Positions 8,009 to 34,300 of a stretch of DNA of 64,000 bases are shown here, one piece after another. Location: NCBI GenBank assembly GCA_050084515.1, contig CM114271.1, positions 26,350,001 through 26,414,000 of the forward strand. Direction: 5' to 3'. Position 1 is the stretch's first letter. Every line of letters begins with the position of its first letter. The position numbers and the translations under genes are program-made. A model generated the notes under the pieces. It was not told the origin of the DNA. It saw only the letters and a program-made list of their open reading frames with translations, and did no database searches. The stretch comes from Blasia pusilla. Taxonomy: Eukaryota.

Positions 8009-8988
8009 ATGGCGGATGCCAAAAATTCTGGGGCAGCTCAATCACCTAGTAATGGGTTTCAGTGCAAGGCTCCCGAACCCCGCAACCAGCACACGAAAGA
8101 GAGCAGCCGCTCGTCGTCGCCTCAGCTGCCGTTCGGACGTCCGCATCCTCTCATGGCTCCGCAGCTACCATCACTGAACGCAGGGCAGTCTCACCCCTCC
8201 AACGGCGCATGGGCCACTGCTGTCTGGGAGCATGCTCCCAACATCTCAGAGGCCATGGAAGGGTCGAACGGAGCTCCCTCGGAGTACAACGTAGAACGAA
8301 CATTGGACTGGGAAGTTAAGAGCTCGCCCTGGGACTGGGAGAACATGAGCGCGATGTTCTCCAGTCGGGGAGGAGGCGAGGCGCATTCTTCCAAAGGGCC
8401 CTCTTACACAGTCTGTCACAGCTCCGTTAGCCGATCCGTCGCGTGCAATGCTGGTGAGTGGGGTAGCAGAAGCTCCTTCACGAAAGCTGAGAGCGAACAC
8501 CGCAGTGACACTACGCAGGAGTCAACCAGGCTCGGAGACCTCGTCGTTGAGCGGAGAGCCTCTCCGCAAAGGTCAGTAGTGACCATGGATCAGCAGCGAA
8601 AACTGGTACTCGGCCTTGGAGGGCCGGGGAGTTCTGCGGAGGGGAGAAGACCATACGGCCGCGAAGATTGTAACCGGGAATCTCCAAAGGTCGGAGTCGC
8701 TGATTCGCTCATGGGTTTGAAGCTCGGGAGGCGAATGTACTATGAAGATTTCGGAAGCGTTCGCGGAGATGGTGCGGCAGCTGTATTTGCAGTATGTCCT
8801 CCGGGGAAGAAACAGCGTGTGCAGTCTCCAGGAGTCCAGGTTCCCCGATGCCAAGTGGAGGGCTGCAAGCAAGATTTGTCCTCAGCCAAAGACTATCATC
8901 GAAGACACAAAGTTTGTGACATGCACTCTAAAGCAACGAAAGTAATGGCTGCAGGCATTGAACAGCGCTTCTGTCAGCAATGCAGTCG
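8009..8988 (+). CDS. SPL: SPL gene A exon 1 (N-terminus and first part of the SBP domain)
   Basis: Ends TGC AGT CG|GTGCAA (phase 2) at the canonical SBP intron position. Confidence 0.92.
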
Positions 8989-11900: not shown

Positions 11901-14900
11901 CCTGATTTGGGGAACAAAGGTTTATCCACAGCTAAACATGTAAGATAAACTCAGTCACCATATATGTGTTCAGCAGAGGGTTCACTTCTAAGGTAGAAAT
12001 GGTAAGTTTCTCATAGAAAGAAGCAGTGCAGCTTCCTTGGATTGAATCTTTGGACTGCATAAAGGTCTTTGGCTCAGTGAGTAAGATTAAATATTTGTGT
12101 TGCACAGACTCAACACTTTCAAAAATATATAAAAGAAATAGACCCAGGAGGTTTTTGCTGACCAGGAGCTCCATATCCTAGTAGGACACTGGCAGTAACT
12201 GATGTGGGTTTAGTAGAAAACTTACTCGTAGCTCTGTTGCTGAAGTCACCGGTCAAGGCCATTCTGCTGCACTAAAACTGGAAGCTTCACTCAAGTCAAA
12301 TTTCTATCCCCAGTTTTTAATTTTAGCATTTGTTGTTTTATTCTGTGTGATATGTACAGCTGTTTGGTATCTATAGCAGGAGATCCAAGCAGCTACGAAT
12401 CCCCATGTGCTTGCTGTTGTAATTCGGATAAGCTGTCAAGTATGTCACATTCATTTGGTCTGGGCCTCCTAGTCAAGCAAGGTCGCCCTTGAATTATAGG
12501 CACAGTTTGGGTTTGGTCTGGCTATAATGAAGCTCTGGAGATCCTTGATTTGTAGAAGTCCTCGAGTGTAAGAGTGTATTATGCAAGCATCTCATATGGC
12601 AAAGGGATGAAAGTGCCTGAACAGGTAGCTGGATAGAAGGCCATGGCAAGGACATCCCCACCCCCCCCCCCCTGCGTGGAGGTATAACCACATTGTTGTC
12701 AGGACTTCTTAAAGGACTGATCCCCATGGGCTCCTCGGTGGCATTCCCACTCTTACTATGTAATATACTCACCCAACCAGAAGACAAGCACCCCACCAGA
12801 AGGTATTCAGCTTGTCACAAGCCATTGAAAACCTTTTTGAACCATGTTCCTGAAGGTTTGTACTTCAGGATAGTCCTTGATGAGCTGAAGAAACAGAATG
12901 CCACATTTAACGTGGATGTCTTCTTGATGTGAAGCTATAACCACATCATTGTCAGGACATCTTAAAGGCCTTCGCAAATCCCTACAATGGATTTTCCTGT
13001 TAGGCCTTCTTGGAGAAAGTCATTGGATGGTTCGCTGTGGCACTGCTGTTTTGCTTTTTTGGACCTGTTTGGATGTTAGATGGGCTCAGAATGTGGAAGG
13101 TGATGATTTGATGGCCTCCTTGTATGCTCTGCCCCATTTCTATTATTGTTTTGTCAGGATTCCCCTGGCACATCCCAAGTTGTTGAATACCTCGTGTTCA
13201 CCTATCATTGGCATTTTCCTGCTATTTTTGGTAGATGCAAATCTTGGAGTGGGGGAACCACATGATTGAATTTGATCGGAATAGTATATATATTGGTAGT
13301 AACAAAGCTATGACTAACTATGAAAAGGTAGTTGTGTTGATCTCTCAAAATTGTATTTTAATAACTTGGGTGAAAAAGGGGAAATTCGAGAAGCTGATAA
13401 ATAGTCGTGGGACAGACATCTCGAAAGAGGAATTGAGAGGGTTTAAGTGAAGTTTTGTCTTTCTCTGTCCAGTGCTGTCGAGTGACTCATTCACCCTTAA
13501 CTAATGCGGGGAACTTCTGTATCAGTGGGCCTTACTTGTACATCATGTTAAGGTCCTTGTGCTTGAGTGCTATGTAAGTGGCATGTTTCAATTTTGCCTG
13601 GTTTAAGATGAAGCGTCTGTACTTCCTTCCCTTTGTTATCAATCAGAATTTATGTGCATGTACAGTTTTCAGTGTACTCAGTGTTTTTGGGTTAGGTTGA
13701 GAGAAGGATGTCTGATAGGGATTCTTGCTCTTTTTGTATCTTTCTCTGGTGTGGCGTTTGGCTACATTGAGACACTCGTTGCAAGGATGATTTTCCTTGC
13801 TTTCTGGCATTTAAATACAATGTTTGGGTTTACGCTAGAATTTCTTGTGTTGCTGAATTTTCTTCTGCATCTCAAAATAGAAGTCTTTGCTGAAGGTAAT
13901 GGAGTGACCAGTTCCTAACAGGATGAGGCACAGCTAGACTGGAGAAAATCACAAATCTATTTGTTTCAGTCCTGTCCATTCCATGTGAGTGTATTTGGCA
14001 ACAAAGTAGATTGAGAGTTTGCCTACCAAATATCTCTGGTACTAGATGACGTACCCGACACATCTACCAATCAGAGTGGTTGATGTGGTTTTCTAGAAAA
14101 CAAGGATCTTTCTTGATTGGAAAATGGGCACCTTAAGGAAAGATGTCTCTCTTTATCCGTTACATCATTATTGAAGAAGTGTTGAGCCATATAATTACTA
14201 AGCTGTCATTGGCATGTCTTGCACATGAAGGACTACTTCCATGTTTGTTAATCTATGGCAAAATTTATCTTCTGCACCTTGAGATGTTGTTTGAGCTTTG
14301 TCTGTTTTTGAAACAAATGCTGTCAGAGGCCAGGAAACTTTCCCTTTCACTGATGGTTTTTTTTGCACATTTCAGAGGACAAGCAAGGACCTGATGGTTT
14401 GGCAGAACGGGGTTGTTACATTCCAACGCAGAGGAGAACCCCTGGATCATCTTCCACATCAGTGGAGGACTCTGATGATCAATCAGGCTCCTTAGGGACC
14501 AATCTGCAGTTGAATCAGGCAAAAAGCCCCTGGCAAGGAATGGGGCGAGTTGAGGATTCTACAAGTTTGGCATGCCAGGTGGCTTGTGGGGAGAGGCAAG
14601 CATTTCTCTCCTCTCCGACGGCAGATGGATTGCTTATGTTGTTGCAGAGTCCTAAGGGGCAAATTCCAGGTGCAGGAGTGCATCAGTGTATGATGGAAGG
14701 GTCAGGGTCATTGGGACCTGGCCTTACGCTTGCCTCATCGACGGGTCCAGCCAGTGTGCTTTCGGGCCTGGAAGGCTCAAACTCACCAAGCGTTTCACGA
14801 ATATCGGATTCTGGGCGTGCTCTCTCTCTTCTGTCAACTCAGGCTTGGGGCTCCAGAGGAGGGACCCCAGGCTCAGTGTCATTAGATCTGTCCACGAGGT

Positions 14901-15346
14901 CAGATGTGACACTAGAGCAGCTTATCTCGGAGAATTCTGGGGCCCCATTTTCTCCAAGACGGCAGCGATCACAGTTTCATTCAACAGCATCCACCAATGC
15001 TGAGAAGCCATTTCCTCTGCTGCCCCCTAGCTCTACTGCAGATTTAGGGATCTCTACAAATGTCAGAGTGGAGAATAGGGATCAACATGGGGATTTCATG
15101 CCTGGATTAGGTCTGATGGGAAGTTTTGAAAGTCACTCGATGCTTGCATTGATGCAAGGACAGCCTGACTTCCATGGGGTTCAGGGTTCAGGCAGTACTT
15201 CACATCGTCCAACAATAGACCTCATGCAGCTTCCTTCTCCTCAATCTCACAATAGTAGCAACCATGCCTCAAGTGGGCAATTTCCCCAGTTCTCTACTTT
15301 GAGACCATTTGAAGCCTCTCTCTTTGAGTCACAGCATATGTTGTAG
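8009..15346 (+). CDS. SPL: SBP-box transcription factor, miR156/529-targeted class (gene A; probable orthologue of Marchantia MpSPL2); join(8009..8988,10782..10918,14376..15346), ~695 aa
   Basis: SBP domain split at the conserved intron: [28 protein letters not shown]...[38 protein letters not shown]. Upstream WDWEN and [14 protein letters not shown] motifs; RALSLLS encoded by the miRNA site. Spliced length 2088 nt, in frame, ends TAG. First in-frame ATG is 8009; the ORF-track start at 7901 is GTG. Confidence 0.93.
10782..10918 (+). CDS. SPL: SPL gene A exon 2 (second part of the SBP domain and NLS)
   Basis: Acceptor GGTCAG|T TTT CAT. 3' end placed at CAC G|GCGAGT (GC donor, phase 1). Alternative phase-1 GT donors at 10952 and 10958. 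Confidence 0.85.
12683..12968. repeat. Imperfect 33-bp direct repeat in intron 2 of gene A
   Basis: TATAACCACATTGTTGTCAGGACTTCTTAAAGG (12683-12715) and TATAACCACATCATTGTCAGGACATCTTAAAGG (12936-12968), preceded by a poly-C run. Confidence 0.75.
14376..15346 (+). CDS. SPL: SPL gene A exon 3 (S/G-rich C-terminal region containing the miRNA site)
   Basis: T-tract acceptor TTTTTTTTGCACATTTCAG|AG GAC AAG, then an open frame of ~320 codons to TAG at 15344-15346. Confidence 0.9.
14813..14837 (+). promoter_or_regulatory. miR156/miR529 target site in the coding sequence
   Basis: GGGCGTGCTCTCTCTCTTCTGTCAA. Core 14817-14836 GTGCTCTCTCTCTTCTGTCA is the standard SPL miR156 response element; the 5' extension overlaps the offset miR529 register. 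Confidence 0.95.
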
Positions 15347-17059
15347 ACTTTGGAAACACTTTGCATTTGTCGGAGACAGATCTCATTATCTGTTTCTTGG
15401 TTTTCATCCAGTTCTACTGATTGCTGAGATTGAGTTCTGAGTGTCGCAAAGTAGGAGGTGCTGGGGAAAGTCTATCTGTGCCACCCATCTGTACCGAAAG
15501 GTGATCCTCTTGATAGACTAAGGGACAACTAGCAAACTAAAGGTACTGGGTTGAAGAGTGTCGCACTCCTCAACCCTGACATCTTCTCTTATGATTCCCA
15601 TGACCAATGAAATGCTGATCTCCTGGGGTTCTCTGGTGGTGAGCTTGAGTGGGTGACAAGGATATATGTTCCTTACTGGCCCTGTAATCTGCGTAGTTCC
15701 AATCTAATGTCCAGCAAGAGCAGATCTGGATTGAAGTGGCACTTTCTAGACATACCATCGAGATGATGGGTGTGGTGCCCTGCAGAGGATCCTATCGTGT
15801 TGATTTTTGCATTTTTTTCTCACATTCACATGGAACAAAAAGTTTACCCTTGAAACAAAAGTTAACCCTGCGTGGGCCTGGCATGCAAATGTATATTGCT
15901 CTGGGCATTCTCCATGGACTTAGCCTTGATTCGAGGAAACTCCCTTGCGAACAGTATTTTGACTTGATGGATCGGATTCTAGCCTGCTCCAATTATGCAA
16001 AATTTTGCGTTTTCCACAGAACATGTGCAGTAATTGCATACTAGAAGCCATAACTGTAATTGTGATAGTGAGCTCACTTAAGTATTGAATCAATTCACCA
16101 GACCACAGGCTCCTGATTGTGGCCTACTATTACTAATTACTGGAGTTTTTGGAGGTGCAAACTATAGATGTGATCACATAAATATTCCCTGGGATTCTTT
16201 GTGTTTCTGCTCGTGAGGGTGGTGGATGCAATTGCATTGTATTGATAAAGTCTCCAGACCTAATCTCCAAATTTTTTTTGTGCCTGTCTTCTCTCCGCCA
16301 AGTTCTACCCGACACGTCATTGCCTGAAACAGGCCGTACTTGCCCAGAATTGCTTTTTCAGGAATGGCCTCTGCCCAGATCCGGTTCGGAACACTCCATC
16401 TTCGCAACTACTCGCCGCCGCCCATTAAGATTCGCTTCAGGAGCTACTTATGGGGAGCTTTCGCCTGGAGCTGGCCAAGCATGACCACTGATTTTGACCA
16501 TGTAGGCGTTCGCAGGATCCGGTGATTACACTATGGATCAGTTTTCTTTCCGAAAAGACTCAGCAGATAGTAAAAGGAGAAATCAGCAGTGTATCCACGA
16601 GAAAGTGGACATTTCTACCAACTGAACATTTTATCGCTCACACTTATTCAAAGCAATTGGAAAAGGTCACGAAATGAGTAGGAGCCGTTCGAAACGTAGC
16701 AGGACATGGGCGGCATATTGTGAAGAATCCTCTCCTTGCTCCTTTCTATCATCGAGGAGCCTTCTTTTTGTTAAACGTCGAGGACGGCGGTGGCGAGAGT
16801 CTAGGACTTAGCAGGAGATGTCGACGTGTCCACTCTTCTTTCCGACCTCTATCCTTCGCAACTATGTGGCGCATGGCAGTTATGCGCCTTATGTCGACAC
16901 TTGTCTCGTAGGCCTTCCTAAAGCGGTCCGTGATGGGCCCATGAGTTGACGACATCGATGGACACACGAACTTTTATGGCTCCAAGTAGTGGGCCACCAA
17001 ATGCATTCTTCTGGGAGGATCCTATGGCTGCACTCCACCTGTCCTAACACCTCTGAAAC

Positions 17060-18700
17060 GCAGATCAGATTGTGGGTCCCTAAGGGATGTAGTCTTAAAG
17101 GTTGTGGTCCCGGGACATATACGTCTTTTGAAACTCGGGGAATAAGAGAGAAGATGGCCCCACGTCAACTTTTCTGAAAGAATCCTCCAAAATGACATAA
17201 ATCTTGTGGTTCCACGACAAATGTTTCCCTAGGAATGTAGGAAGGCCGTATCAACACTACATCAGAGCGGTGGGTCCCACAAGATAGCGATCTATGAAGA
17301 TCTCCATGGAAACAGGGACAAACACGACTTGACTTGTGGCTTTATTTTCCTTTTTATTATCTTTATCTTTTATTTTTCTTTCCATGGGGGTCCGAGAAAT
17401 CGTCGAAAATGAGCTGAGAACTTGGGGTCCCACCTCCGTTTTAAATTAAATTTAAGCCCCTTTTTTCTGTTTGTTTTGCTTTATACATGGGAGTCCATGA
17501 AATCCTAGAAAATGGACTGGGAAGTTGGGGCCCCACCACAAATGTTTTTCCCACAGGGATGCATGAAATCGTAGAAAGTGGGCTCGAACTTGCGGTCCCA
17601 CCCGAAGTATTTTTCCTTAAGAGTCCACGAAATCGTGGAAATGGAGTCAAACTTGCGGTCCCACCACAAATTTTCATACAACAGTTGAGTATCTCAAGGG
17701 TTTGTTGAGACTTGTGGTCCCATGAGAAAGAGATATCTCTATAAGAGCCCACATGAAATATTTCCATAAGATCGTCTTTCATAACATTCGATGAAACGAA
17801 GAGACATCATGATTTAAAACTAGTGGTCCCACACAAAATAGTTCTATATGAGTCCATCAAGTGGGAGACAAGTGACTTCTTACTCATGGGTCCCACAAGG
17901 AAAACATTTCTCCATACTTTTTTCTTAGAAGTGAAATATCCACTTTATTATTAGGAGTGCATGAATGTAAGTGAATAGTGGTCCCAACAAAAAATATTTG
18001 TATGAGAGTCCATGAAATTAGAAACATCTTCTCTTGAAATTTTGTGGTCCCACAATAAATCTTTCTACTAAGGATCCACTTTATTTTATAATAAAGTGGA
18101 TATATATAATTCGTGAAGTGATAGACAACATAAATTAAAAGTTTTGGTCCCATAAGAAATCTTTCTACAAGAATGAAGGTGATGAGAGAAGCCATGAGTG
18201 AAAACTTGTCATCCCAAAATAAATCTATACTATAATATGAGGGGAAGGGGGTTACTTTTTTTGGGTACTCCTACCGTACAAAAATTGAAGTCCTTGAAAA
18301 GGAAAGTTCATTTGAAAATAGTAGGATCACATTTCTTAAGATTACATGGGTTCTCTTTATGCATGCAGTTTTTGTTTAATGATTGGACCTCCTCTACCAT
18401 CCATACAAACATTGGAGCTTCAACACGAGTTGGTAGTTCTCTCGTACAATTGAAGAGTACATTTGAAGGTTAGAGTACAATTTAGAGATTTTAGAGCTTC
18501 CGATATATGTGGCGGAGTTGTTGTAAGAATATTTGTATGGACCTAGGCTCTTATTTAATGGTGTTTTAAAGTGGTAAAACATGGCAGGAACAAATTTATG
18601 GCAATTCATTGCACGGGTGCTCTTAGTAGTGTTTCTTTAAGAAGCATAGGAGACAAGATAAATTCAAAATTTTAGTCCCATAAAAAATTCTTTTATTAGT
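17060..18700. repeat. Degenerate minisatellite, ~60-65 bp unit with core CTTGTGGTCCCAC
   Basis: Core variants at ~17102, 17203, 17270, 17421, 17525, 17589, 17652, 17711, 17820, 17885, 17977, 18041, 18142, 18206 and 18670; ~59-64 bp spacing across 17525-17711. Confidence 0.8.
18224..18629 (+). mobile_element. Short non-autonomous Helitron
   Basis: 5' A|TCTATACTATAATA; 3' decayed hairpin ...TTGCACGGGTGCTCTTAGTAG|T (CTAG-like end); inserted between A and T with no TSD; removing it restores a minisatellite unit. Confidence 0.7.
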
Positions 18701-18999
18701 CTCCATTTAAGGAGACAGTTAAGTCTCCTTAAATGGAGATAAAGAACTTCCCTTATTGGTAGGTAAATGAACTTATGTTTTCTCTAGTCTAAAATATTCT
18801 TATGAGTCTTCTTGAACTTGCCTTACAAAATACACATCATTATTTGTCTTACATCTCTTTCCATCATGTCCCTTTGTCCACCTCCCTTTTGCACATCCCA
18901 TATTTTTGGGGGCCTACTCTCCTTGAACGTCAATCTTTAGTGTTGCGGAAGCAAGGGCTTAGTAGGACACGCTCTCAGTGACTCATTCCATGAGTCATG

Positions 19000-19770
19000 A
19001 TCCTTATCATCCAAACTTGAATATTCTACAAGATGTCGCCTATTACTTTCCTGTCCTGAGGCGAACATCTACTGATATTTTTGATAATGGAAGTCTCACA
19101 CTACGTGTAAATGCATGTGTGCGTGAGAGTTTCCTCACGGACAATATCCTTGGATCCAAACCTAACTATAGAAACTGGTTTGTTTCCTTATCTACGTGGG
19201 CACTTTGTACGGAAATGAACATTTTCTGAAGATATCCGCAATCGCTCTAGGCAGTTATTTAGTGTTTTTTCATTACATCGGCCTTATGCCCTTCTGATGC
19301 ACCAACTACGTCAAGCAATTCAGTTATGTTTGAATAATCAAAGTTTTATACTCAATAGAGAGTTAGATAGTGTGCGAAAATAGAAACCCTATCTTAAAGA
19401 GGAAGACTTATATTACCATCTTTGAAAATATTTCGTAAGCCCACAATTTCCAAGGAGCCTTGCATGGCATAGGAGACACCTGAAAGACTTGAAAGCCATT
19501 GTTCATAAATGGGGTATGCCCCAATTTTTTCCTCTCCCTAACATCTGATGAGGTATTTGAAAGTCGTTGGCCTGAGTTCAAAGACATTGACCTCCTACTT
19601 CAGAAATTGAATCCAAAATTCACATGGCAAGATGCTCCATCTGAGTGTGCACAACTCTTCCACACTTGGTTGCACTCCTTCTTATGTCGATTTATATTTA
19701 GTGGTCCATGCCTGCTCGGTTGTGTTCAAAACTATTTACTTCGCTATGAGCTACAAGGTACATTATTATA
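19000..19770 (+). mobile_element. Helitron-like Rep (helitron_like_N-type) fragment, second family, copy 1
   Basis: PQFPRSLAWHRRHLKDLKAIVHKWGMPQF/FFLSLTSDEVFESRWPEF...FTWQDAPSECAQLFH...YLLRYELQG (19441-19758, one frameshift). Resembles the Rep motif 1 to motif 2 region. Confidence 0.7.
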
Positions 19771-20334
19771 TCTTCTCGTTTGGACATGATTCCCATAAAC
19801 TTTTGGACGTCACAATGATTCTCATCAGATTGAATATGATTTCGATCATAATTCTTGTGTTTCCAAATGCTTTGCATACATTTTGAGATCAGTCTACTAT
19901 TTGCAACAATTACTACGATAGTTTCCATCAAATTTGCTTTCTCTGTGTTCTTAGGCATATATATCTACTTTCTCTTCCAGGATGCCACTAGGCAAGATAC
20001 ACTATATGCAAACTTATACTTTTGACAACTTTATACCTCAATGCATATCATTGAAGGATTTATGCTATTTTAAGTTTACTACTCCAGTATTCAATAACAT
20101 ACTCATGGTTCTAAATCCTATTTCTTATTGTACTTTATAATCCAGCCTTCAAAAGTTGATTCACATTTTCTATACATTGTTTCATTTCAATCATCATTAT
20201 TCTTTCAATTTATATACTCTACTTTCAACACCGTATTGACAATCCATAAATCTTGTTCTATTATGCATACTTTTATACATAGTTTCTTTCCAATTAATGC
20301 AATAATGTTGCTGATTATCTTGTCTTTTTTGCAG

Positions 20335-20751
20335 AGGATTGGTTTGCAAGCTCGGCGTCCATCAAGATGTGGACCATTTCATCAAGCCTGTACTAGTCCT
20401 TCCACTTCAAGGGTTCAATACAATGACACTCCTGTGTCATTTCAACATGACACAGATAACTCATCATCTGACTTTGCTGATCAGCATGATTCAGAAGCAG
20501 CTGAGCATCTTGAAGACCAAATTCTGAAGATGTCAAATGAGATAGAACATCTCAACAACTTGCTGAATTCTGCTCTAGAAGATAGTCAAGATTAGTACTC
20601 TGAAGTTCAGTGCATTAAGAAGCATTTGAAAAAATCCAAAGACCAATTCTCTGATTTTGCAAAGGACATACGTCCTCTACTAGAGAACAATCCTAAGTTG
20701 GCACTCCAGTTAGCTTTGATCCAATCCATGTTGCGTGACTATAGAGGATAA
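20335..20751 (+). pseudogene. Orphan exon-like fragment encoding an acidic then coiled-coil-like peptide, one internal stop
   Basis: Acceptor TCTTTTTTGCAG at 20334; ...AEHLEDQILKMSNEIEHLNNLLNSALEDSQD*YSEVQCIKKHLKKSKDQF...; probably TE accessory or captured sequence. Confidence 0.4.
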
Positions 20752-20835
20752 AATCAGTAGTGTAGAGATGCAGTGCCAATACACCACCAAGCAGATACTC
20801 GTGTACCTTCTTACTAGAGTACAAAAGTGCTCCGA

Positions 20836-21045
20836 TTGCCTACTCAAACACACACTAGCAGATTTTGAATTGCCTTCCTAACACTACAAGGCTAAACTTT
20901 GATTTCCTACTGAAACATACACTTGCAGATTTTGAATTGCCTTCCTAACACTATAAGGCTTAACTCTGAATGCCTACTGAAACATATACTTGCAGATTTT
21001 GAATTGCCTTACTATCACTATAAGGCTAAACTCTGACCTCCTCAA
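20836..21045. repeat. Tandem repeat, 67-bp unit x ~3
   Basis: CAGATTTTGAATTGCCTT recurs at 20859, 20926 and 20993. Confidence 0.92.
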
Positions 21046-21979
21046 AATTTTAATTTCTCCTTCACTTCCTTACAAATATTTTTTGAGTTCTTTTGAAATA
21101 CATTCAACCTTTCTTGCTGACTTTGGTTCTCTTGCAATTCATTGGATCATTACAAAGTTTTATTTCTTTGAATAATTTGCATTTGATATTTATTTCAATG
21201 TATAACTGTCAAATATTCAGTAAAATTGAAAAGCCCCATCAGATCAATGATAAACTATTCTTCCAATAAATTTCAATAATTTTGCAAAACATACTTCACA
21301 CTATGCCAATATTCTTAAGAAATATACATATCATCATCACAATTACAATTAAACTTCAATTAAACTTCACTCAGTCCTAAAACTCATTCCAAACTCTGCA
21401 TAATATCTATTTTTTCTCCATGATCATATCTCCATAATGGTCCAAGATATTTTCAATGCACTGCACAGACTCTCTATCTTTTGTCGAAACCTTGTGGGAC
21501 GGAATAATATCCCAAGAAATATCTTGCAAAAATTTATGATATAACACCCACACGATCTGCCTATTCAGGCCGCATACTTGTTGGAGTATTGCCCTTCAAA
21601 CCCAAGCCTCCAAGATGGTGACATATGGTCACAAGCCATCCCAACATACAAAATCTATTGCTTACTAACACAAAACGTAAAGAACCTTCCAAGAAGGTCT
21701 AAAGAAATCCTCTAATTCAACGATGACATGTATACATTTGTGATAAAGGAAGATAATCGTATTCTCTCCACTTTCTACCCCAAATATAGCCCTTATATTG
21801 GGCCCCATTGTGATACTCTCTACTCTCACTTGACTAGAAGTTTAACCAACGCGACAAATACTATACCTATACAACAAGATTTTATGGAAACATTGACCTT
21901 GTATTACTCCTCCCTATTTGCTTCTACCATCTTGTCCTAACATATTATAGTCCTCCCCTCAAGGTTGCTTATGGAAATT

Positions 21980-22290
21980 TTTTGGGCCCGTGGTCATGTC
22001 CATGTGAGTGGACTTACGTCCGTCTTATAGAAGGACTTGTCCATGTGAGCCATATCTCATGCTTCTTTCTCATCCTCCCACTTGCCTTTGTGATCCCCAC
22101 TTTCTTGTTTCTTCTTCCTCCCATCTCCATTCTCTCCCCCCTTATTTCCCGGCCCACCCTTGCCTTGCCTTCCATCATTAATTATAAGTGCGGGCCCCAC
22201 ATTTTGCAATCCATATTCATGGAAATATCTAAAATTTTCCGTCCATGTCCGTCCTAGGGATGGACGTGTCCCTTTTTGTACAACCATGCC
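21980..22290. repeat. Dispersed non-coding repeat (MITE-like), copy 1
   Basis: GTGGACTTACGTCCGTCTTATAGAAGGA...GCTTCTTTCTCAT...CTTGCCTTTGTG aligns with 40540-40985; an inverted fragment lies at ~23470-23535. Confidence 0.75.
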
Positions 22291-23544
22291 TCTCCTTCCT
22301 CTCCCGTATTATTACTTTAGTCCCCACCCGAGCATCTTTTCCCTAGCCTAAGTGGGAGTAGGAGCTTGGGCCAACAGGGAGGCCATTTTCTTGGGGGCAC
22401 CAAGGTGGGGGGATGGGGGGTTGGTCAAATTTTCACTAGCAGGATAAGATGCAAAAAGTTCAAAATTTTGAGAAAAGAATCCCATAGAGACAAGTTTACA
22501 TACTAGGAGGCCACATGCAATCTATATTAATTGTGATAACCACCAATTCCCTAGCGTATTGAACATCTTTCATATAACAATTATTCTTGAAAAGGCTCAT
22601 CCAAGGATGATGTCAGACCTAGCATGCCCCACCTTTGAGACTAACCATCATCCACCTAAATCGTGGTTGCACCTCTATTCGGATCATTTACCTACAATTA
22701 TGAAATCTTTGCCAAAAATATTCATCCATGACCACTTCTCAAAATGGTTACATTTGTCGGTGATGCCATGCCAATCGACGAGTATGTTGAGATGAGTCCA
22801 ATGGTGTTTTCTCATAACTCAGTATTAACTCCCCTTATAAAGTCACCACTATATTAATACAAATCTTATGAGAGCGATCTAAAAGTCTTACCGTCTCCAT
22901 CAAATACTCTAACACACTCTATGTGGCATCTAATGACACCAACGGAAAAAATCCCATTATTCATGTGTTATTACCAAATTTGGCTGCAAAAATATGTCTA
23001 ATGCTTTCTTATTATAAGAAGCTACCATCCAAACATATCTTACTCCTTGCTTGTTTTCCATTGTAACATAAAAAAGAATCATATCCAACTCTAATGAATC
23101 CATGAATGAACCTATCAAACGTGCAACCTTTGGCTAAGCACTTGTGCAGTATGCAAGAGAATGAGCTTAAATGTTGGTAGGAGGAGAATAAGCTCACGTC
23201 ATGAGGAATTCATTTTATTTCAGTAGTGGGGTTTAAATTACGGGTGGTTTAATTTGGTAGTGGGGTTTTCATTTTTTTTCAGTAATGGGATTTAAGTTTA
23301 TGGTAGTTCAATTCGAAAGTGGGGATATTACATGAGTGGGTCCTTTATTTTTGTCACGTTAGAGGTCATTACAATCCATAAAGTAGGAGGAAGTGGTGGA
23401 GTGGGTGTTTAATGACCTACATCCCTTCCTCACCCCCTTCCTAAGCAACAAATTTGAAGTCTAGGCTTGCACACACATGTCCATACTACGGACGGACATA
23501 AGTTTGTGGATACAAACTTTGTTCGTATACAACGTAAAAAGTTC

Positions 23545-23830
23545 AAGGCTCAAGGCCCAAGGCCCACCATGCGGAGGCTGCGGGCCCTGTGCGGGCTCAA
23601 CTGCGGGCATGAACTCGCCTTATAAGAGCCAAGCTTGCCATGCGGGCCTGCCACAGGCTGCGCACGGGCGAAAAGACGGGTGCAAGCTCGGCTGGCCCGG
23701 TTCTATGTGAAGGTCTCAACGGGCTCATGGGTGAGCTCATGTGGGGACCACAGATACCCGAGCCCATACGGACTTTGTCAGTGTGCGATCCTGCTCGCAA
23801 GAGACTTGCATGCGGTGCACTCACAAAGTA
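23545..23830. repeat. GC-rich patch of short TGCGGG/GGGCC(C)/GAGCCC repeats, probably a DNA-transposon subterminal region
   Basis: Isolated GC-rich block in AT-rich DNA with repeated TGCGGG, GGCCC and GGGCTCA. Confidence 0.4.
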
Positions 23831-26800
23831 GTGGCAAACTCAAAAAATGAATATATAGAACACTCATAAGGCCACTTACAAATCAAGTAGCGATGGAATA
23901 TGAGAGCTCATCAAGGAATATACATATATGCATCTAATAAATGAGATATTTCTTTATGAAAGTAAGAATCCATCAATTAGAAACGCTTAAATTTTCTTGA
24001 GAAATAATGTGAAAGGTGGTTAAATGGGAATTTATTGTTTCTCTTCTATCTAGCTCTATTTTTTGAAATTTTGAAAAAAAATCAATACAATATCTCCAAA
24101 TAATTTAAAGTTTTTCCTAGTAAATTAATTTTCTTCCTCGTCGATGCAATCATGTTTTTGAAACATATAAGAATCCTAGGGAACTCCTATTAAAATTAGC
24201 ATGTACTTAAGAATAGATCATTTTAAACTTGATGAGAATGAGTTTCATAGAGCTAAACTATAAAAATCTCCATGAATGCCTTGATGGTATTTCTATTAAA
24301 AGATTCCTAGAAAATAAATTTAAAAGAGAAATTTTCCTTGAATAAAATTTATTGTAAATTATAATCCATGTAAATCATTGTAATCTTCCTCTTTGGAGAT
24401 TTTTTTTTGTAGGAAAATACTTGCCCACTCATGTATTGGAGAATTTCAACAAAGTAAATTTTTGTAGAATCAAAAAGTTTTTCATGAAAAAAGAGACCAA
24501 AATATGAGTAATTCATGGAAGAATTTCAAAGACAAAGAAACAAATAAGATTATAATGGCTCATGAATAAAACATGACTAACATAAATTTTCAACATTTTG
24601 GTATGGTGAAATATTTGTTAAATTCTGTAATTATCAAAATTTCATTCTTTTTAAAATATCTCAATTATTTCATCTCATTGAAAAAATTGAAGTATTGGTA
24701 ATTTTTTTAATAATTTACTTTAAATAGATTGATGAGTCCTTGCATTTTTTGAAATTTTGAATGGTTTGACTTCTTGATATTATAAAAATAATTTTACCAT
24801 AGAAATAATATTTTTTTAAGGAAATGTAATCACTCACAACTTCCGTAGATAATTACCAAAATCGGATAAGCACATACCTCAAAGATAATTTTATTGGGAA
24901 TCTTCATTTCTTTTATTACTTATACTCAAAAGAAGGACAACGTGAGCTATAATTTTACAACAAATTCTCATAATTCCTTAGACTTAGAAGGAAAGCAGAT
25001 GGAAGGTCAATTTTTTTATCTTTCATATTGATTAAAACTTATAGTTTAAAATGTTGAACTATATTAATTACCATCAAGAAGACTATTTTTTGCACTTGAC
25101 TTTCAGATGTTGACCATAGAATTGGTATCATGAACACGTTGTCGTCAAGCTTTTACTTATTTAATCATTTAAAAAAAAAAAATCATTTTAAAACTTACAT
25201 GCATCAATTTAATACCTTAATGTGAGCCGGAGGGGGGGAACCCTAAACTAAAAAACTCACAAGTTTTTATGAAGGACTAGCAAATTCCCTCGTAAAGATG
25301 GTGTGGAATCAAATTTACTTTTCACGTACAACCACGTTGAGTGGGCAGTTATTTTATATTTCTCTCCTCATTAATTACTAAATACAACCATGGAATAAAA
25401 TCCCACTTGATGTAGATTATAACCTCGCGGATAAATGGGAGACCAGTTTGGGAAATGGTGCATTAGTACAAAACTGACCGTATCATTTGTGAGTTTGTAC
25501 ATTGGAGCTCTTTACTCATGACTTTGGCAGTACAATTTATCCCTTTAGGCGTTTAGATGAAAAGTCCGTTTAGTGTCCTTTATTGTCCTTTCTTGCTCCG
25601 ACATAGCATGAAACAAAGTAGCTGTCTCATTGACAAAATAAACATACCTTTCTGATGGAGTTTTTTTATCGTAGCGTCGTACGGGGCTTTATATATTCCT
25701 TGTTTATATTCTTCATGATTCAGTGTAGTACAAAGCCATTATACTTTCCATTTTATATTTCCACTCTAGTGTGGGACTTTTATTTCCGTTGCAACGGCCC
25801 GCCAGTGGAAACTTAAGTCTGCAGTTTCAGTGCATGTTTTAGACATTACTTACACATAAATAACAAACTTTTTTTGATTAGCATCTTAATCATTGAGGTT
25901 TCAACCCTTCAGCGGTGAATTGAGGCCCCCGTTCTTTCACATTAAGAATACAAAAACGCATGTAGAATAGAATTAAAATAATCTTATCTTTAATCGTCAA
26001 TCGAATAAATGAGACCTATCTTCCAGCTTCAAGTCTCCACTACAAGAAAGACACAAGATTTTGTAGGATTTTAATTGACAAGAAATATTCGAAGTCTCGT
26101 TGTTCCACACCCAACGCGAGACCATCAACCAATAGTCAAGTACGAAAATATCAAGAGAGATGGGATAGATCAACAAATTACAAAATAAATTACAATCATA
26201 ACTTACTTCATCCACATATGCAAAACTGGTGAACCTATCGTGAGTCAGTTGACACATGAGAACTGAATCTCTAATTCTATTGAGTTTAAGTACAATTCCT
26301 AAGTCAATGAAGATCATGCGTAGGCTGCGGTCATGTGTGTCTCTTCTATCAAAGTTATCTAACGAAAAGTTGTCATCTGGAGACAGTCATAGCCTTCATT
26401 CTGGGAGGCTCCATGCTCCACTTCACTTCTTGACTCCACTTCTTCCAAACTCTAGGTGCCGCACGACCCTATGGGATCAATGCTTCTTCATCTCTAGATC
26501 TACGCTAACAAAGCCCAACTGAACCGAACTATATAGATAGCGATGCTCTATATAAAAGTAGGACTTGTGGGGGGGAAGGGGGAAGGGGGATCTCCTAATC
26601 CTTAGTACTCCAAGTGCTCGAAATGTTGCAGCCTCCTGCATCTCGCATCAGCCATGACATAATCTACAAAACCCACAAGGACTTCAGTATTAGAATCCAC
26701 CACCCACCACAACTTCAATATCAGGATCTGCATGCATTCTGCTCCTACTCGAGAGCCGAACACTAATTCAAGGCGTGATTCTACATGCCCTTGAATTCTG

Positions 26801-27861
26801 TTTTGGAAATCAGAACCCCATGAATTTGAAGAAGAGGAAGAATCACCTCAATTGCAGTTAGAAAGTAGAAGCCATATGAACTTGAGAGATGGATCTACGT
26901 GTATGTACACTCCTATACTACTTTCAAAGACCATCCATCACAATGTAAGCCACGATAAAAGTTCCTCCGTCCCTATCCAGAGAGTAGAACACGGAAGTCT
27001 GACTTACAGAATTCTAGGTACAAGCAGCAAGTCCGACAGACCTCCACAGGCTTCTATAGAGCCCAGAGACAGATAGGTAGTAGTTTCAAAGCATGAATTC
27101 ACCAAGTACCTTCGTCTATAGCTGCATCATGTTAATGGATGAAATTGTTGTATGACTTCAAAAAGCTACAATCTGATTTACCCCTCTTTCCATCATCTAT
27201 GAACAAATTACATATACAGCTGTTCAGTGGTGTAAGTAAGGGGAACTATATGATGGCAGGTACTGAAGGGTAGTCGTTCGTAGCTCCAAATGATAGTTAG
27301 GCAGGAGAACTCACCACCTGTACAGATAGTAAATAGATTTGAAGGCTCGGGAGGAATGGGCATGAAGAGCAAGGGTTTGGTTACAGATGTAGAGCACCCA
27401 ATGTAGTGAGGAGAGGAAGAATCCAAGGATCCAATAGTTTTCAAGAAATCTAGATGACTTCAATAGTAGAATACATTACCTCGGACAATGATCACGACCA
27501 GATACTCATCACACGATAGAGTATGAAAATCCAGTCCTGCTTCAAAGGCAACCACCACCCGTGACACTTAGTTTGTATAGTCTCTGACTAGCCAGCCAAT
27601 AGCCAGCATTTACAATCGCAAGTCCTCACAATTAAGCATTAGCCGATATTTATCAAAGACCCTCTTGATGGCATCTGAAATAGAAATAAGGGGTCATAAA
27701 CTACTCCATCCCTCCCTTACTCCTGGAGTCTTGACCTACCCTCCCTATAACTAGAGTTTGATTTTTTGTCAAGACATCAAAATTTGAGGCCAACTGGATC
27801 GGAGAGGATAGATAGAGGAGCATACCAGACACAAAAATTCACATACGATCCAAGTTGCATC

Positions 27862-28847
27862 TTACAAAATATTATGGTGAGGGTCATAGATAGAGGGCCC
27901 AAAGCTCCCCGGTCTTAATGCTTGCAACTCTGGGAACTTGAGATCAGTCCCACCGGACCTAGTGCCATCGCCTCCATCACTTCCATGCTGCTGCAAGAAC
28001 TCCACAGCTCGTCCTTGCTGTTGACCACCCCCAGAAGACCCTTCTCGAATTGTCGCTGGGTTCTCAAGAAGAGCCAGCATCTGATTTTGATGTCCTTCTA
28101 ACTGACCTCCTGACATGTTTAAAGTAGAGGAACCAAATGGGGCAGAGTTGTCTCGATTATGCCCCGCTAAATTACCTAACATCCACTCCGATCCACTCAT
28201 GTCTCTAGAGTGTATATTTGGGAGTAGGTTTTGAATTGATGTGGAGTATACCTGCCCTGAGGATGTACCACCAGCAGACGTAACTTGGTGACTTGTTCCT
28301 TGTGCATTTTTTTCAGGTATAAGATGTTGAAGATTCATTGATGGTCTGCTCACATTTTGAGTTAAGTCAGACCTTGAACCGGTGGGCCTTAACCAAGGGA
28401 CAGAGGCCTCAATTCCATTGTAATTTTGACCTGAGGAGCTCCTTTGAACCTGATTTCCAAGTCCCAATCCTCCACCTAATGAGGAGAGTGATAAGTTTGG
28501 GCCCGTTTGCCCTACTCCATGTAAATATTGCTGATATACAGCCGCCTCCTGTGAGTTTCCTGGAAGAATGGACAGCTGACGCTTAGCACTTTGCATCATA
28601 AGAGGAATTGGAGGTGCTAAAGACATGGCCGATAGTATGGCTTGAGCGTCCGGACAGGACATTGAACTAGTATGGGAGTTAAGCATCACCCCATGCCGCT
28701 CATCAGGTCGGCCAAACCCGGCTGAAGTTCGAAGTTGCAAATTATTACCAACAGAACCAGTCTTGTCATCGGAGTCTTCCAATGACGCTGAGCTTGGTGA
28801 GCCGGATGTTTTGAGATGCATTAACATTGACTTCTGATCTGCTGAGG
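27862..28847 (-). CDS. SPL: SPL gene B exon 3
   Basis: AAAACAG|CC TCA GCA GAT; in-frame alternative acceptors would start the exon at 28841 or 28838; open to TAA at 27864-27862. Confidence 0.88.
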
Positions 28848-31316
28848 CTGTTTTGATAAAGAGAAATAACAAGGCCCAGCAAACCCATTAACAAGTATCA
28901 GTGTCATGAAAGGATTCGACACTCTGGCACTAAACATGAGCATTTTAAGGGACTGAAAACAACCCTAGCTTTTGGGTCTCTAGTTATCACATAACAAATC
29001 ATGCCCGCATGTCAATGGAGTCATCCACTTTCTGCCGTCCAATAGTTAGACTAAGATTTCCACATAGGAGAGGAGAGTAAGGTAGTGAGTCTTCGATTAT
29101 GATTTGTCTAATCATGAAGCCTTTTTTTTCTAGTTAGCACACGAGTCTGAATATGGCTAACCTACCTTGCAAGTAGCCTTCTTAGATGGTGTACAAGTCT
29201 ATCCATATATTTCTGATGGGCATTGGCCACCAATCTTTGGAAGGAATTTAGAGCAGAAGGGTTGAAGGTCCTGATTCTATAAACCAAAGACGTTCTTGTT
29301 AATGTGGAATACAAACATCAGACAAGTATCAGCTCACCAGATGTGCGATTATCTTGTTCCTCACTCTTCAAGGCAATAGAGTCACCGGTGGTTCCACCAG
29401 TTGAAGCAGTGGGCTGTGGCTTGCGCCTGCGACGATTGTGGTCTGCAAGGCGCTTTCTGCAGCTCCTCTTGCCCTCGTCAAATTCGGTTAGAAGATGAAA
29501 TCTGCAAATACATAGCACGACTTGGAAACATGTTTTCAGTAAGGAGATCAGAAATTTGTGAATGGTAGGCCCACACTCCTCCAATTCAATTAGGATGTGT
29601 GGGAGCAGTGCAATATTCTTAACTGTACATTGCTGAAACGAAATTCACAACATGGTCGGAGCAAAGAGCTCACACTCAGCTAATTGTCAGGCTGAGTACT
29701 ACACTCCTACGAGCTCATCACTCTGCACCTAAAAGGCATGTACACACCCACTCTTGCACATCCCAATCACTTTGCCTACACGCTCAGTATACTCTTCCTC
29801 CTTCAGCAAGAGTTCTAACATACGTGTCCACGACTGTCACTGAAAAGAAGCAATGTAGGCCCTAGTGAAGTAGATCGTTATTGAGCATCTTCTACAGACT
29901 CGACAGTATGAGGCATGAACCATTAGTCGAACTAAATCAAACCTGGAGTCGGATCTGGACACTCGAAATGCGGTCCAGAGATAGGGAACCTCTATACAAC
30001 CCTAAATGCCCAAAAGCAAGGAAGCAAGCTGCGTCTAATACTCTGTCGTCGCATCTACTTAAAGCTGGTCCTATCCAGTACATTGAATTACGTCACTTCC
30101 GGACAAACGAAAGGCAAAATCTGTAACTAAATTTAAAACACTCGCAATAAAAAATAGTGGCAAGAAAGACAAGAAGAACGCACGACGTTTGCGGCTGATT
30201 TGATACAGTCGCAATATCCAGTTTCCTGGAACCAAGGCTCAAGAACCGGAACTAACAAATACCCTCATCTGGAAGAGGCAGACATCCACATGCAGTCCCA
30301 AGTACCTCCTGTCAAGTGCTTCCTGCTTTCATCAAGCGCTTGCTTCAAGTTGGTTCTTGCGGAAGTCCCAGCGCGGGACCTGCCCGCACTCTATGACACT
30401 GATGTGGCCACTTCGGCAGCAGCAGACACATTTCCTTTCGGAAGACACTCTAGAGGAGTCAGCAGGGTCCAAGGGAAAGCTCCGGAGAGGATTCTGACCT
30501 GCTGCATTGCTGGCAGAACCGTTGTGTATGCCCAGCTGCTATCACATCCGCCGCCTTGGAGTGTAATTCGCAAACTTTGTGCCGGCGATGATAATGCTTG
30601 GCGGTGCTCAGGTCTGCTTTACATCCCTCGGCCTGACACATGGGTACCTGCGAGCCGGGTGAATTGGAACGATGCCTCTTGACGAGACGTCCTGCTGCAG
30701 TGTCCTCGGTGGAAAAGTAGGTGCGCACCCCAAGATTGAGCCCTATTCGAGCTCCATGACCGTCACTTGCACAAACCTCCTCTCGCTTCACGTGGATGTC
30801 GTTCGTATGGCCTTTCTGTTCCAAGTCCATGACCCCAAAATACTGCCTCCGCCTTGGTTCGTACGAAGATCGTATATCGCCATGACCCCCGCTTGTCGGA
30901 GCAAGACCGGGAATTCCGGGGATACTGGAAGAGCTCATAGCTCCATGCAATCCAGAGGAGGTCGTGATACTTGTCGAATCCATGCCTGCAAAGCTCCGAA
31001 TGCCCGATGAGCTGAAAATCCCCATAGGGTTCTGTGAAAAGTTGGATGGAAATCCAGACGACAGAATGCCTGTGTAGGCACGAAGGCTGGAGGCCATTGA
31101 TCCAGTGATTGGAGACTTTCGGTCAGCATCACCATCATTCGCACCACCACCCGGGTGCTGTGCCAAAATCATCGGATTATCCCACTCCCAGTCAAGCCGA
31201 TTTCCGGTGTATGGTCGAGTACCTTCCAGGCCAGATACCGAACCTGGTTGATCCCAATTCTCTGCCGCCCAATTTGGTTCTCCTTGCTCCTCCGAGGTAT
31301 TAGCAGAAGGGTTCAT
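27862..31316 (-). CDS. SPL: SBP-box transcription factor, SPL8/clade-III-like (gene B; probable orthologue of Marchantia MpSPL1); complement(join(27862..28847,29338..29501,30499..31316)), ~655 aa
   Basis: SBP domain [28 protein letters not shown]...[41 protein letters not shown]8-type motifs LDWEWDNP and [17 protein letters not shown] introns; spliced length 1968 nt, in frame, ends TAA. No miR156 site seen. Confidence 0.94.
29338..29501 (-). CDS. SPL: SPL gene B exon 2
   Basis: TTTGCAG|A TTT CAT ... TCT G|GTGAGC (phase 1). Confidence 0.93.
30499..31316 (-). CDS. SPL: SPL gene B exon 1
   Basis: ATG at 31316; ends TGC AGC AG|GTCAGA (phase 2). Confidence 0.92.
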
Positions 31317-34300
31317 CCCATATGCCAGCAGTGAGCGGCAGGGAGAGAGCTTGGCAATGATAACTTACGGCGGGGACAATTGAACTAAACGAAGTCGATC
31401 AACAATTGGCGAGTTGAACTCACTGCGGCCCTCCGACTGGGATGACGGTGGCAGCAAGTGATGACGTCCGTCTGGCAGATTGGACGTTCTGGTTGAAAGG
31501 ATATCTCTCTCTTATTCTCTGAGACTCGCTTCAACTCTCATATTAACAGCTCCGATGAAGACCACCCGGGGCCTTCGTTTCTCTTCGCCCAGAGCAGACA
31601 GTCGTGACTCGAGAGTTGTCGCACTTGCTAACTCGGAAAGAAGCTATCGGCCATGATCTCCACCTGTTGTCTGCCATCCAATCAATCAATCCTCCAGAAA
31701 CTATAAGTTACGTTCCGGCTCCAGTTTCGAGCGCATGCAATAGCTTACTAAGGAGCCTTGCTCATCCATTGACTGTGTATAAAATGCATCAGTGCCGCCC
31801 AGCTGAGAAGACGGTGAGGGAGTGACAGTAGCACGCGAAGGTGAAGAAGAAACAAGTATCCGATGACCACAAAGGGTTCGCTGATTTCGCTGAGCACACG
31901 TCCGTTTTGACTAGAGGAAAGCTGTACAAGAGCGACGTGTACTGCGTGATTTGATGGCATGACCCGTGCTTCCTCCTCTCTGTGCAAGCATCGTCCGCTA
32001 TCCAAACATACCTCTTCGCCCTCGTATTCCCTGAGTAGCCAACTTCCGAGAGACACTACTTGGAAATAAATATATTTCGCGCCGGTATCATACACTGCAG
32101 CATTCCAACGAAGACATGGACTGAGCATCACTTTCCAAAACCGACTGCGTACTGACGACATTCGTTTACACTTCTCTTCAACTGAAGAGTGGGAAGGAAA
32201 TCACGCGAGAACATTACAGTAAGCGATAATGGATCCTGACCACTTCACTAATGCAGAACTATTACCATTTCCGCTGGTGGAGTCGACCACATTTCTGACT
32301 ACCATAGACCATGATTAGACAATCGAACGTGCACAAGGGCAGACATAGTAAGCAGAAACGAGGAGCTCCAACACAATCCACATTTCCGAGGGGAGTATCA
32401 CTCGAGAGACGAAGGTACAGATCAACCGATCTGTCGTGAAAAATGATGGGCTACTGCTGCCATTAACCATCGTCAGAACTGGGCGGGGCGGTCAAACTGC
32501 CGAGTTGAACTATTCGGAGACAAAATGTTGAGAAAATCGTACGCATGGACACAGACAAGGATACAGCAGTGGAGTGGTTCGCGTGGAGATTTTCCCAGTG
32601 ACTACTCAACCTAAACAAAGCCCAGACAAGCACCTTGTAAGCCCCATCGAGCAAAGCATTCTAATGGTAAACCCCCAGAGGTAGCTGGAGGGACTAGAAA
32701 TCACATCAGCTAAAAGCGTCGCGAGCTAATCAGATGACCTCCGGAACAATCCCGTTATTCTCTCTTCCTTCGAATTGAAGCAGATACGGTGTACCGGAAC
32801 TCAGAACCCGCCTGAGTCCCTTGTTAGCAGAGACTCACAGTGGAACATACCCCGATATATTGCAGGACAAGATACTGTGGGAGCTTTCAGAGATTTGGAC
32901 GAGGTTCTCTCTGGACGTCGAGGGCCATTCCCACGATGTAGCTCCTAGATCATGATAAGATGAACACACAGCTCATGTGATAGGCGAGTGGGAGGACAAA
33001 AACTTGTTGTCGGCCTTCATCGACCCCTGATCTTCAATGAGCAAAATCTGAAACCTCATGACCTAGAACATATTAAATAGGCCTGCTGCTATTCTCCCCC
33101 ATCCACCATCGCACCGAATGTTAGCCCGAGTCTCCCTTCCTCATGTTGCTACACACTCTCGTTTCCCCGCAAACTCGTGGTCGCTCCCAAGTCGGCAGGC
33201 GTCCTACACCGTCTGGAATCGCTGACCCAGGAACCAGAGAGCGGATGTAGAGCTATCCTAATGTTGACTATCATTTCCTACCCGCCGCTCTGAAAGAACA
33301 AGATCTCGTCTAGTAGAAAATGACCACAATGCTCTCTATCTAATGACTGGGGAAGTGAGGCTATCGATGTCCAGTTCCACGGTTCAGTCCCCGGATCGTG
33401 TACCCAGAAGAGTTTCCTTGAGCAGATTCGTCGGAGAACACGGCTCGTCCACTGCTGGGCTGACTGTGTATGCCTTCACACCCAGGCGACAGACCGGAGA
33501 CTAATCGATCGTCCCATGCTGCCTGGCCAGAACCCACCTTCCCACTGCTAATAGGTCAACCTCGCAATGCCTCAACCACTTTTGATGGGCCGTTCGCTCT
33601 CGATGACAAGTCCGAAAGCGCTTAAAGTGACTGGCTCCAGACGAGACAAGGACATGTGACCGTTCTCGACATCTTGAGTGAATATGTCAATTGCGATCCG
33701 AGCAAAGTCAATTTCAGGATCTGCGACGGTCTGGGCTGGCTGGCTACAACTTCCATCAGCACCGCGGGAGTACAACACTGCGAAACCACTCTATCTTATC
33801 GTGGAAGAAATTGAAGTGACAACTTCACCGAACACACTCACTCCAGAAGGCTCAGCTCGCCTCGGACCTCACCGGTCAGGTGCACACAATCGGCGGTAAG
33901 GTGCATGAGAGGAAGTGGGACCAACACTCTCCTTTACATCCATACAGTCGAAAAGACACCGCGATGAGCTCGCGTGCTCCCCCAACAATGGACAACACCG
34001 CAACGATTCCAGCTTCTTGTCTCCTTTCTCTCACTCACACTGAGGTGTGGTGCAGACGAGGAAAGGCTACCGACCGGGGAGAGAATGGAGCCCCGGGTAC
34101 CCAAGGACGGACCAAGGAGCCGATGCGATAGTGCAGGCTGAGGTGGGGCGAAGAGGAGAAAGGGCAGTGAGCGAGAGAGAGGGGACCGGGAGACGGACGT
34201 CGACTGGTGCGGTACCTCTGTTCTGCTGGGGCCGGCGTCTCCAGGGAGGGAGTCCGAGGGACTGGACTTACTACAGCCCGGAGAGAGCGGGCGGGAAGTA

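Follow-up and report, generated by a model that had tools for sequence, protein, structure and literature searches.

Ordered motif blocks in the disordered tails of a convergent SPL1/SPL2 gene pair of the liverwort Blasia pusilla

SPL transcription factors time developmental transitions across land plants, and nearly all that has been learned of them, to our knowledge, relates to the SBP domain and to the microRNA (miRNA) site. In Marchantia polymorpha, MpSPL2 is a target of miR529c and promotes the reproductive transition. MpSPL1 (Mp1g10020) is a target of Mpo-MR-13 and promotes meristem dormancy (Streubel et al., preprint 10.1101/2022.10.03.510622). Previous work placed MpSPL1 with AtSPL8 in Group 1 and MpSPL2 with all known miR156/529 targets in Group 2, described the two as sister groups, and held the SBP domain to be the sole part common to SPL proteins (Alisha et al., 2024; PMC10796333). 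Here, we analysed 64,000 nucleotides of Blasia pusilla (assembly GCA_050084515.1, contig CM114271.1, positions 26,350,001 to 26,414,000; the whole stretch is called the window below), which hold two convergent SBP-box genes, gene A on the forward strand and gene B on the reverse strand. We found that the last exons of the two genes, which encode their C-terminal tails, align colinearly as a series of short blocks, and that the similarity lapses at the miR156/529 site of gene A.

Sequence comparison identified MpSPL2 (Group 2, the miR156/529-targeted type) as the orthologue of gene A and MpSPL1 (Group 1, the AtSPL8 clade) as that of gene B. The Pfam family SBP (PF03110) was detected in exon 1 of both genes above the curated cut-off (expect value, E, 5.2e-18 in A and 7.3e-18 in B), and the second half of the domain was found in exon 2 of both. 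In both genes the SBP box is interrupted by the first intron at the same Arg codon, before the Phe-His step, in phase 2, and the intron preceding the last exon is in phase 1. Start codons and exon 1 ends were set by alignment to orthologues and the remaining splice sites were read from the sequence; the donor of exon 2 in gene A was picked to give a junction matching the Marchantia orthologue. The resulting models have 708 (A) and 655 (B) codons before the stop, both coding lengths being multiples of three, with the last exons inside the stop-free frames 14354-15346 (+) and 28887-27862 (-) and 12.5 kb between the two stop codons.

A search with the last exon of gene A gave six matches, all of them liverwort SPL2 proteins (50-62% identity, E 1.7e-107 to 5e-66), which included MpSPL2 and proteins of Calypogeia fissa, Marchantia paleacea and Riccia fluitans. 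Such single-sequence searches with SPL2 tails scored just the 8000 candidates with the most words in common, and each returned liverworts only, with six matches. The last exon of gene B gave 12 matches, with MpSPL1 the best (80% identity, E 1.4e-152), followed by other liverwort SPL1 proteins (55-69%), mosses (41-48%) and the lycophyte Diphasiastrum (34%). Since the closest matches of the two last exons are liverwort SPL2 and SPL1 proteins, these relatives identify the DNA of the window as that of a liverwort. The last exon of A is 60% identical to that of MpSPL2 (Mp1g10030) over 99% of its length. To the extent that the protein alignment reveals it, the three-exon layout is the same, and the miRNA site has the same position in the last exon. 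Compared with that of MpSPL2, the terminal motif of A is longer, and its tail has a short additional stretch that is missing in Marchantia and Riccia; both features make the tail of A look more like a Group 1 tail. Gene B aligns with MpSPL1 from the first Met of exon 1, and a putative Mpo-MR-13 site lies upstream of its SBP box, where the site of MpSPL1 has been described. Neither tail matched any Pfam family.

The first-pass annotation of the window had proposed colinear homology across these 'unstructured' last exons, and the proposal withstood a shuffling test. From block 1 to the stop codon, the Smith-Waterman local score of A against B (BLOSUM62, gap -11/-1) was 214, while 500 composition-matched shuffles gave 49.3 ± 8.3 with a maximum of 85 (z 19.8). 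The two block 1 peptides, at the positions given in Table 1, translate exactly as quoted in that annotation, and the signal did not depend on them: without block 1 the score was 148 against 46.8 ± 8.2 (z 12.3), and none of 1000 shuffles scored as high. Furthermore, the part before the position of the miRNA site scored 83 (z 7.7), the part after it 82 (z 6.7), and the last 45 residues 41 (z 4.5, matched by 3 of 1000 shuffles). Both tails are low-complexity and disordered and several short blocks are not significant singly, as would be expected if the alignment were an artefact of Ser/Gly/Gln-rich composition in two disordered regions; however, the observed score far exceeded the composition-matched shuffles, shuffles confined to 10-residue windows (mean 50, maximum 98) and a reversed-sequence control (63), and the conserved columns coincide in the two clades in the profile comparison described below. 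We consider such an artefact barely credible, and it was rejected on the shuffles, the reversed control and the profile comparison. Collectively, these results support the homology of the last exons over their whole length and their descent from the common ancestor of the two SPL clades.

In block 1, 18 of 25 aligned codons specify the same residue, and 13 of those 18 do so with different codons; third codon positions match in 7 of 25 and nucleotide identity is 46/75. These figures bear out the earlier suggestion that the synonymous divergence in block 1 points away from recent conversion. Synonymous sites between A and B are saturated in the block 1 codons, which precludes a per-block ratio of nonsynonymous to synonymous substitution between the two genes. 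Recent gene conversion or recent duplication between adjacent inverted genes would nevertheless be a natural way of making two tails alike: inverted neighbours favour conversion, and among same-species SPL1/SPL2 tail pairs, all of which score above chance, the window pair is the most alike (z about 19.6-19.8, compared with 9.6 in Marchantia, 8.1 in Riccia, and 5.5 and 4.0 in Calypogeia). Against this stand the third positions and codon differences of block 1, and the tails are far closer to their orthologues (A, 60-62% to liverwort SPL2; B, 80% to MpSPL1) than to each other. In addition, no nucleotide-level inverted repeat was found between the two last exons; four inverted-repeat pairs were detected, all in the spacer or with one arm just past the stop codon of B, and none touches either coding exon. 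The extra likeness of the window pair is explained by derived changes in the SPL2 tails of Marchantia and Riccia (deletions and a shortened terminal motif), which are found neither in the window nor in Calypogeia. Recent conversion is thus highly improbable, and this candidate was excluded by the codon differences in block 1 together with the lack of a nucleotide-level inverted repeat joining the exons. The two genes are ancient paralogues.

The conservation of the blocks was followed in an alignment of 18 tails, which comprised the two of the window, four liverwort SPL2, six liverwort SPL1, and five moss and one lycophyte Group 1 tails. Absence of the motifs from orthologues of related species had been named beforehand as grounds for refuting the homology; in the 18 tails, every block listed in the first-pass annotation was conserved within its own clade. 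A profile built from five full-length or partial SPL2 rows and run over 1.84 billion representatives matched 3165 proteins at E <= 0.001, 150 of which were used in the follow-up. With a profile of the SPL2 tail only, at least 18 non-liverwort proteins reached E <= 1e-10 (-Z 1000) among the matches listed, and many of them cover most of the profile; these 18 Group 2 tails keep nearly all Group 2 blocks. Seven more Group-1-type tails keep the later blocks, five of the seven being without block 1.

When the two groups were compared profile against profile, the named bryophyte and lycophyte rows gave a probability of 95.9% (E 6e-9, 278 columns), and 21 Group 2 rows against 20 Group 1 rows gave 98% (E 2.1e-13) along a single colinear path of 318 columns. 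Column conservation in Group 1 and Group 2 was correlated over 284 shared columns (Spearman 0.33), and none of 2000 circular shifts was as high. Blocks were also matched one by one across the clades, using a profile from one clade against the tails of the other (118 Group-2-type and 26 Group-1-type proteins; match at E <= 0.01). For the terminal block 8, the Group 1 profile matched 8 of 118 Group 2 tails and the Group 2 profile 12 of 26 Group 1 tails, in every case at the very C-terminus. Block 3 gave 1/118 and 7/26, respectively, and block 6 gave 0/118 and 2/26. The clearest shared blocks, as judged from these alignments, are the acidic Ser-rich block (block 1), the Gly-Pro/Ser-rich block (block 3) and the aromatic motif at the very C-terminus (block 8). 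By eye, many shorter proteins that carry the hexapeptide encoded by the miRNA site also end in a block-8-like motif (last 32 residues, uncounted). Both annotated SPL1 proteins of Riccia (P0012 and P0013) follow the conserved terminal motif only halfway and then run on into unrelated sequence, which suggests either that the last splice site was called wrongly or that the motif has truly changed in this genus. A literature search with six hexapeptides from the blocks gave just two papers, neither of them related, supplements lying outside the search.

Convergent origin of short linear motifs does occur, and many non-liverwort Group 2 proteins have a weak block 1 or none, both of which would fit an independent acquisition of the blocks in the two clades. 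Such convergence is very unlikely, however, given eight blocks in the same order along one colinear path of 318 columns, the shared intron phase, and a weak but likewise colinear alignment of the N-terminal regions: the regions of A and B upstream of the SBP domain (8009-8840 on the forward and 30650-31316 on the reverse strand) scored 68 against 39 ± 7 (z 4.4, 1 of 1000 shuffles). A Trp-rich patch is part of this upstream alignment, as is a Gly-Leu-x-Leu-Gly stretch directly before the SBP domain.

AlphaFold2 gave the tail of B a mean predicted local distance difference test score (pLDDT) of 47.0 and a predicted template modelling score (pTM) of 0.16, and the tail of A a mean pLDDT of 48.6 and a pTM of 0.17, in agreement with their description as unstructured. 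The predicted secondary structure consisted of one six-residue helix at residues 305-310 of the B exon and none in A, so that the 'amphipathic helices' of the first-pass annotation were not borne out. Its description of the blocks as short linear motifs fared better, as predicted disorder and islands conserved among orthologues are both present.

The miR156/529 site of gene A is the sole exact copy in the window, the next best match having 6 mismatches. Its 20 letters are among four strings (mature miR156 and target site), at least one of which occurs in 213 papers. The site takes up about ten codons, flanked by a Gly and a Trp that are common to both clades; ten residues lie between these anchors in A and six in B, which is four shorter. 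In the profile alignment, the site-encoded segment of A has no counterpart in Group 1, and the flanking Gly and Trp are shared. No residual miR156/529 complementarity was found in the last exon of B, where the best match had 8 mismatches in 20 and shuffled exons mostly had 8-9. We then counted the segments in 163 stored proteins, leaving out two short window peptides and two MpSPL2 duplicates. The 26 proteins with a Group-1-type SBP signature carried the site hexapeptide in no case and the Trp motif of B in 18, and the 137 others carried the Trp motif in no case and the hexapeptide in 103. The slot is thus clade-specific, and in B it is, on these alignments, occupied by a conserved motif of its own and not by decayed sequence. 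The earlier claim that the alignment breaks at the miRNA site and marks its gain or loss accordingly holds in its first half, since the similarity lapses there and B has its own Trp motif, but the direction of the change is not settled by the data.

As to that direction, we lean towards Group 1 having lost or replaced the site, a polarity that is the weakest step of our model. According to PMC10796333, the SPLs of streptophyte algae fall in Group 2, Group 1 having no algal member, and a Zygnema protein has a partly conserved site hexapeptide, the algal sequences being known here by description only; these two points favour loss in Group 1, and the presence of the hexapeptide in 103 of the 137 stored proteins without the Group-1-type signature also speaks against a late gain. 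Gain of the site in Group 2 after the split, from an ancestral slot like the Group 1 motif or like neither, is nonetheless an alternative that we rate as unlikely but far from negligible: the motif that fills the slot in Group 1 is old and is well conserved, with named mosses and a lycophyte carrying it, the same source reports for two of three hornwort genomes no match to miR156 or miR529c, and the slot is not rooted by the present data.

Gene B carries a putative miRNA site of its own. In exon 1, upstream of the SBP box, one Mpo-MR-13-like match was found in the window, 0.02 being expected by chance. The letters of Mpo-MR-13 and the position of the MpSPL1 site upstream of the SBP box were taken from preprint 10.1101/2022.10.03.510622; compared with MpSPL1, the putative B site has two mismatches to the Marchantia miRNA. 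The paralogue without a miR156/529 site is thus probably under a different miRNA. With the miR156/529 site in the last exon of A and the Mpo-MR-13-like site in exon 1 of B, each paralogue would have its own miRNA site in a different exon. An Rfam scan of the window gave no family at threshold, and therefore no annotated MIR gene.

The adjacency of the two genes has parallels elsewhere. MpSPL1 and MpSPL2 have consecutive identifiers (Mp1g10020 and Mp1g10030; PMC12993094), as do the SPL1 and SPL2 proteins of Riccia fluitans (R1flu_018994 and R1flu_018995) and, in Table 1 of PMC10796333, the SPL1/SPL2 genes of all three Anthoceros genomes. A text search found no mention of this neighbourhood in the available parts of PMC10796333, the Streubel preprint 10.1101/2022.10.03.510622 or PMC12993094. 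In 22 flowering plants, 13 of 21 g6 genes were reported to have a g1 neighbour, with facing 3' ends in 9 pairs; AtSPL8 belongs to g1 (without a miR156 site) and OsSPL7 to g6 (miR156-targeted), the pineapple genes AcSBP3 (+) and AcSBP4 (-) lie 2.8 kb apart, and miR156 was suggested to stem from such face-to-face duplication (Li et al., 2020; PMC7277735). The window pair has the same layout with facing 3' ends, although its spacing is 12.5 kb compared with 2.8 kb in pineapple. Gene orientation was seen for the window and pineapple pairs only, and liverwort SPL2 is likened to g6 by arrangement.

Part of the motif map has been described before. Among the MEME motifs of PMC10796333, Motif 18 corresponds to block 1 and Motif 15 to the miRNA-site peptide, and Motif 19 begins in the Group 1 slot and extends through block 4. 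That paper takes Motifs 16-19 as bryophyte motifs unique to Group 1, except that Motif 18 also occurs in one Group 2 protein of Anthoceros and Motif 16 in two Group 2 proteins of mosses. In contrast, we found that Group 1 and Group 2 tails align colinearly and that the terminal block is present in both groups. The genes themselves are orthologues of Marchantia genes that have been studied in depth, and three of the blocks have already appeared as MEME motifs. The Group 1/Group 2 colinear map, the terminal motif in both clades and the bryophyte face-to-face pair were not found in the literature searched, subscription papers and bioRxiv supplements being outside its scope; we regard the map of the motifs and the synteny in bryophytes as a modest advance.

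We therefore favour, at a probability of roughly 0.7, the reading that A and B form an ancient tail-to-tail SPL pair whose disordered tails share ordered motif blocks, that the pair came from one ancient inverted local duplication, and that the slot is specific to each clade. The shared blocks may be docking or regulatory motifs of an effector tail, acting in transactivation or cofactor binding. If both paralogues still used the same partners, as we propose, this would place the blocks under protein-level constraint, and the slot would differ because the miRNA imposes an RNA-level constraint in Group 2 and none in Group 1. The acidic Ser-rich block, which we take to resemble a phospho-acidic patch, could be phosphorylated. 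Functions of this kind are on record for SPL tails: wheat TaSPL17-D has a C-terminal region with transactivation activity in yeast (PMC10514913), and in AtSPL9 the C-terminal region is bound by DELLA proteins (review, PMC12986889).

Several observations weigh against this reading. Both functional studies concern angiosperm Group 2 proteins. MpSPL2 against a moss Group 1 protein gave z 1.6, within chance, and in named lineages beyond liverworts the blocks were followed for Group 1 only, in mosses and one lycophyte. In the 18 non-liverwort Group 2 tails, block 1 is shrunk to a remnant; across the clades it was matched in 1 of 118 tails by the Group 1 profile and in 0 of 26 by the Group 2 profile. 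Blocks 2, 4, 5 and 7 had no significant match when taken singly (0/118 and 0/26), and the slot had one in 118 (P0046, away from the colinear position) and none in 26. The set of eight paired blocks in the first-pass annotation is thereby upheld in part: blocks 8 and 3 cross the clades repeatedly and blocks 6 and 1 do so with one or two matches, but blocks 2, 4, 5 and 7, for which no cross-clade match was found, stand just as parts of the colinear alignment. As to synteny, what was seen in other bryophytes is consecutive identifiers, the strands not being seen, and Calypogeia fissa has its SPL2 gene and its two SPL1 copies on different contigs.

A bolder version would make the pair a relic of the very inverted duplication that split the SPL8-type and miR156-targeted clades, in or before the first land plants, with the tail-to-tail arrangement kept in liverworts, hornworts and many flowering plants. 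The face-to-face duplicate of the last exon might then have supplied the MIR156 hairpin, an origin suggested by Li et al. (2020) for flowering plants, and Group 1 would have escaped silencing by replacing the segment between the shared Gly and Trp, the window showing the scar. We hold this version to be speculative and rather improbable.

The positions of the exons, blocks and sites are collected in Table 1. Outside the two genes, Pfam gave one weak match on 16 other long open reading frames, to RVT_1 (E 0.0017, under the curated cut-off), in the stop-free frame 50038-50808 (+), which is probably a decayed retroelement. The stretch 34000-39500 has a G+C content of 53-58%, compared with 27-45% around it, and holds many overlapping stop-free frames on both strands, seven of which were compared with Pfam and gave no match. 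Another stretch rich in G+C, 6000-8000, lies directly upstream of gene A.

Table 1. Exons, tail blocks and miRNA-related sites of genes A and B, in positions of the window
Feature	Start	End	Strand	Remarks
Gene A exon 1	8009	8988	+	start codon to split Arg codon in SBP box; first-Met alignment to MpSPL2 and Calypogeia orthologue; donor read from sequence
Gene A exon 2	10782	10957	+	second half of SBP domain and linker; acceptor and donor read
Gene A last exon, including stop codon	14376	15346	+	disordered tail with blocks; acceptor read
Block 1 of A	14438	14512	+	Ser-rich acidic
Block 3 of A	14699	14740	+	Gly-Pro ... Ser-rich
miR156/529 target site, gene A last exon	14817	14836	+	read from sequence; encodes Motif 15 core
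Block 8 of A	15290	15343	+	C-terminal aromatic motif, to last residue
Gene B exon 1	30499	31316	-	MpSPL1 orthologue; first-Met alignment to MpSPL1
Mpo-MR-13-like site, gene B exon 1	31035	31055	-	2 mismatches; upstream of SBP box
Gene B exon 2	29338	29501	-	splice sites read; junction same as in MpSPL1
Gene B last exon, including stop codon	27862	28847	-	acceptor read
Block 1 of B	28732	28809	-	Motif 18 of PMC10796333
Block 3 of B	28477	28518	-	
Slot in B facing the miRNA site of A	28372	28425	-	Group 1 motif with almost invariant Trp; no miR156 complementarity; approximate, derived from alignment residue numbers
Block 8 of B	27865	27927	-	C-terminal aromatic motif; sole predicted helix at its start

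The tails of SPL proteins are usually dismissed as unstructured, and the colinear map gives them concrete, testable elements. The C-terminal aromatic motif is the clearest of these because it crosses both clades. In addition, the map confines the miRNA site to a single short segment flanked by shared anchors, so that the question of its gain or loss would become answerable with algal sequences in the alignment. If the tail-to-tail synteny does hold across liverworts, hornworts and flowering plants, the pair would represent an unusually old gene neighbourhood and would bear on the published idea of the origin of miR156.

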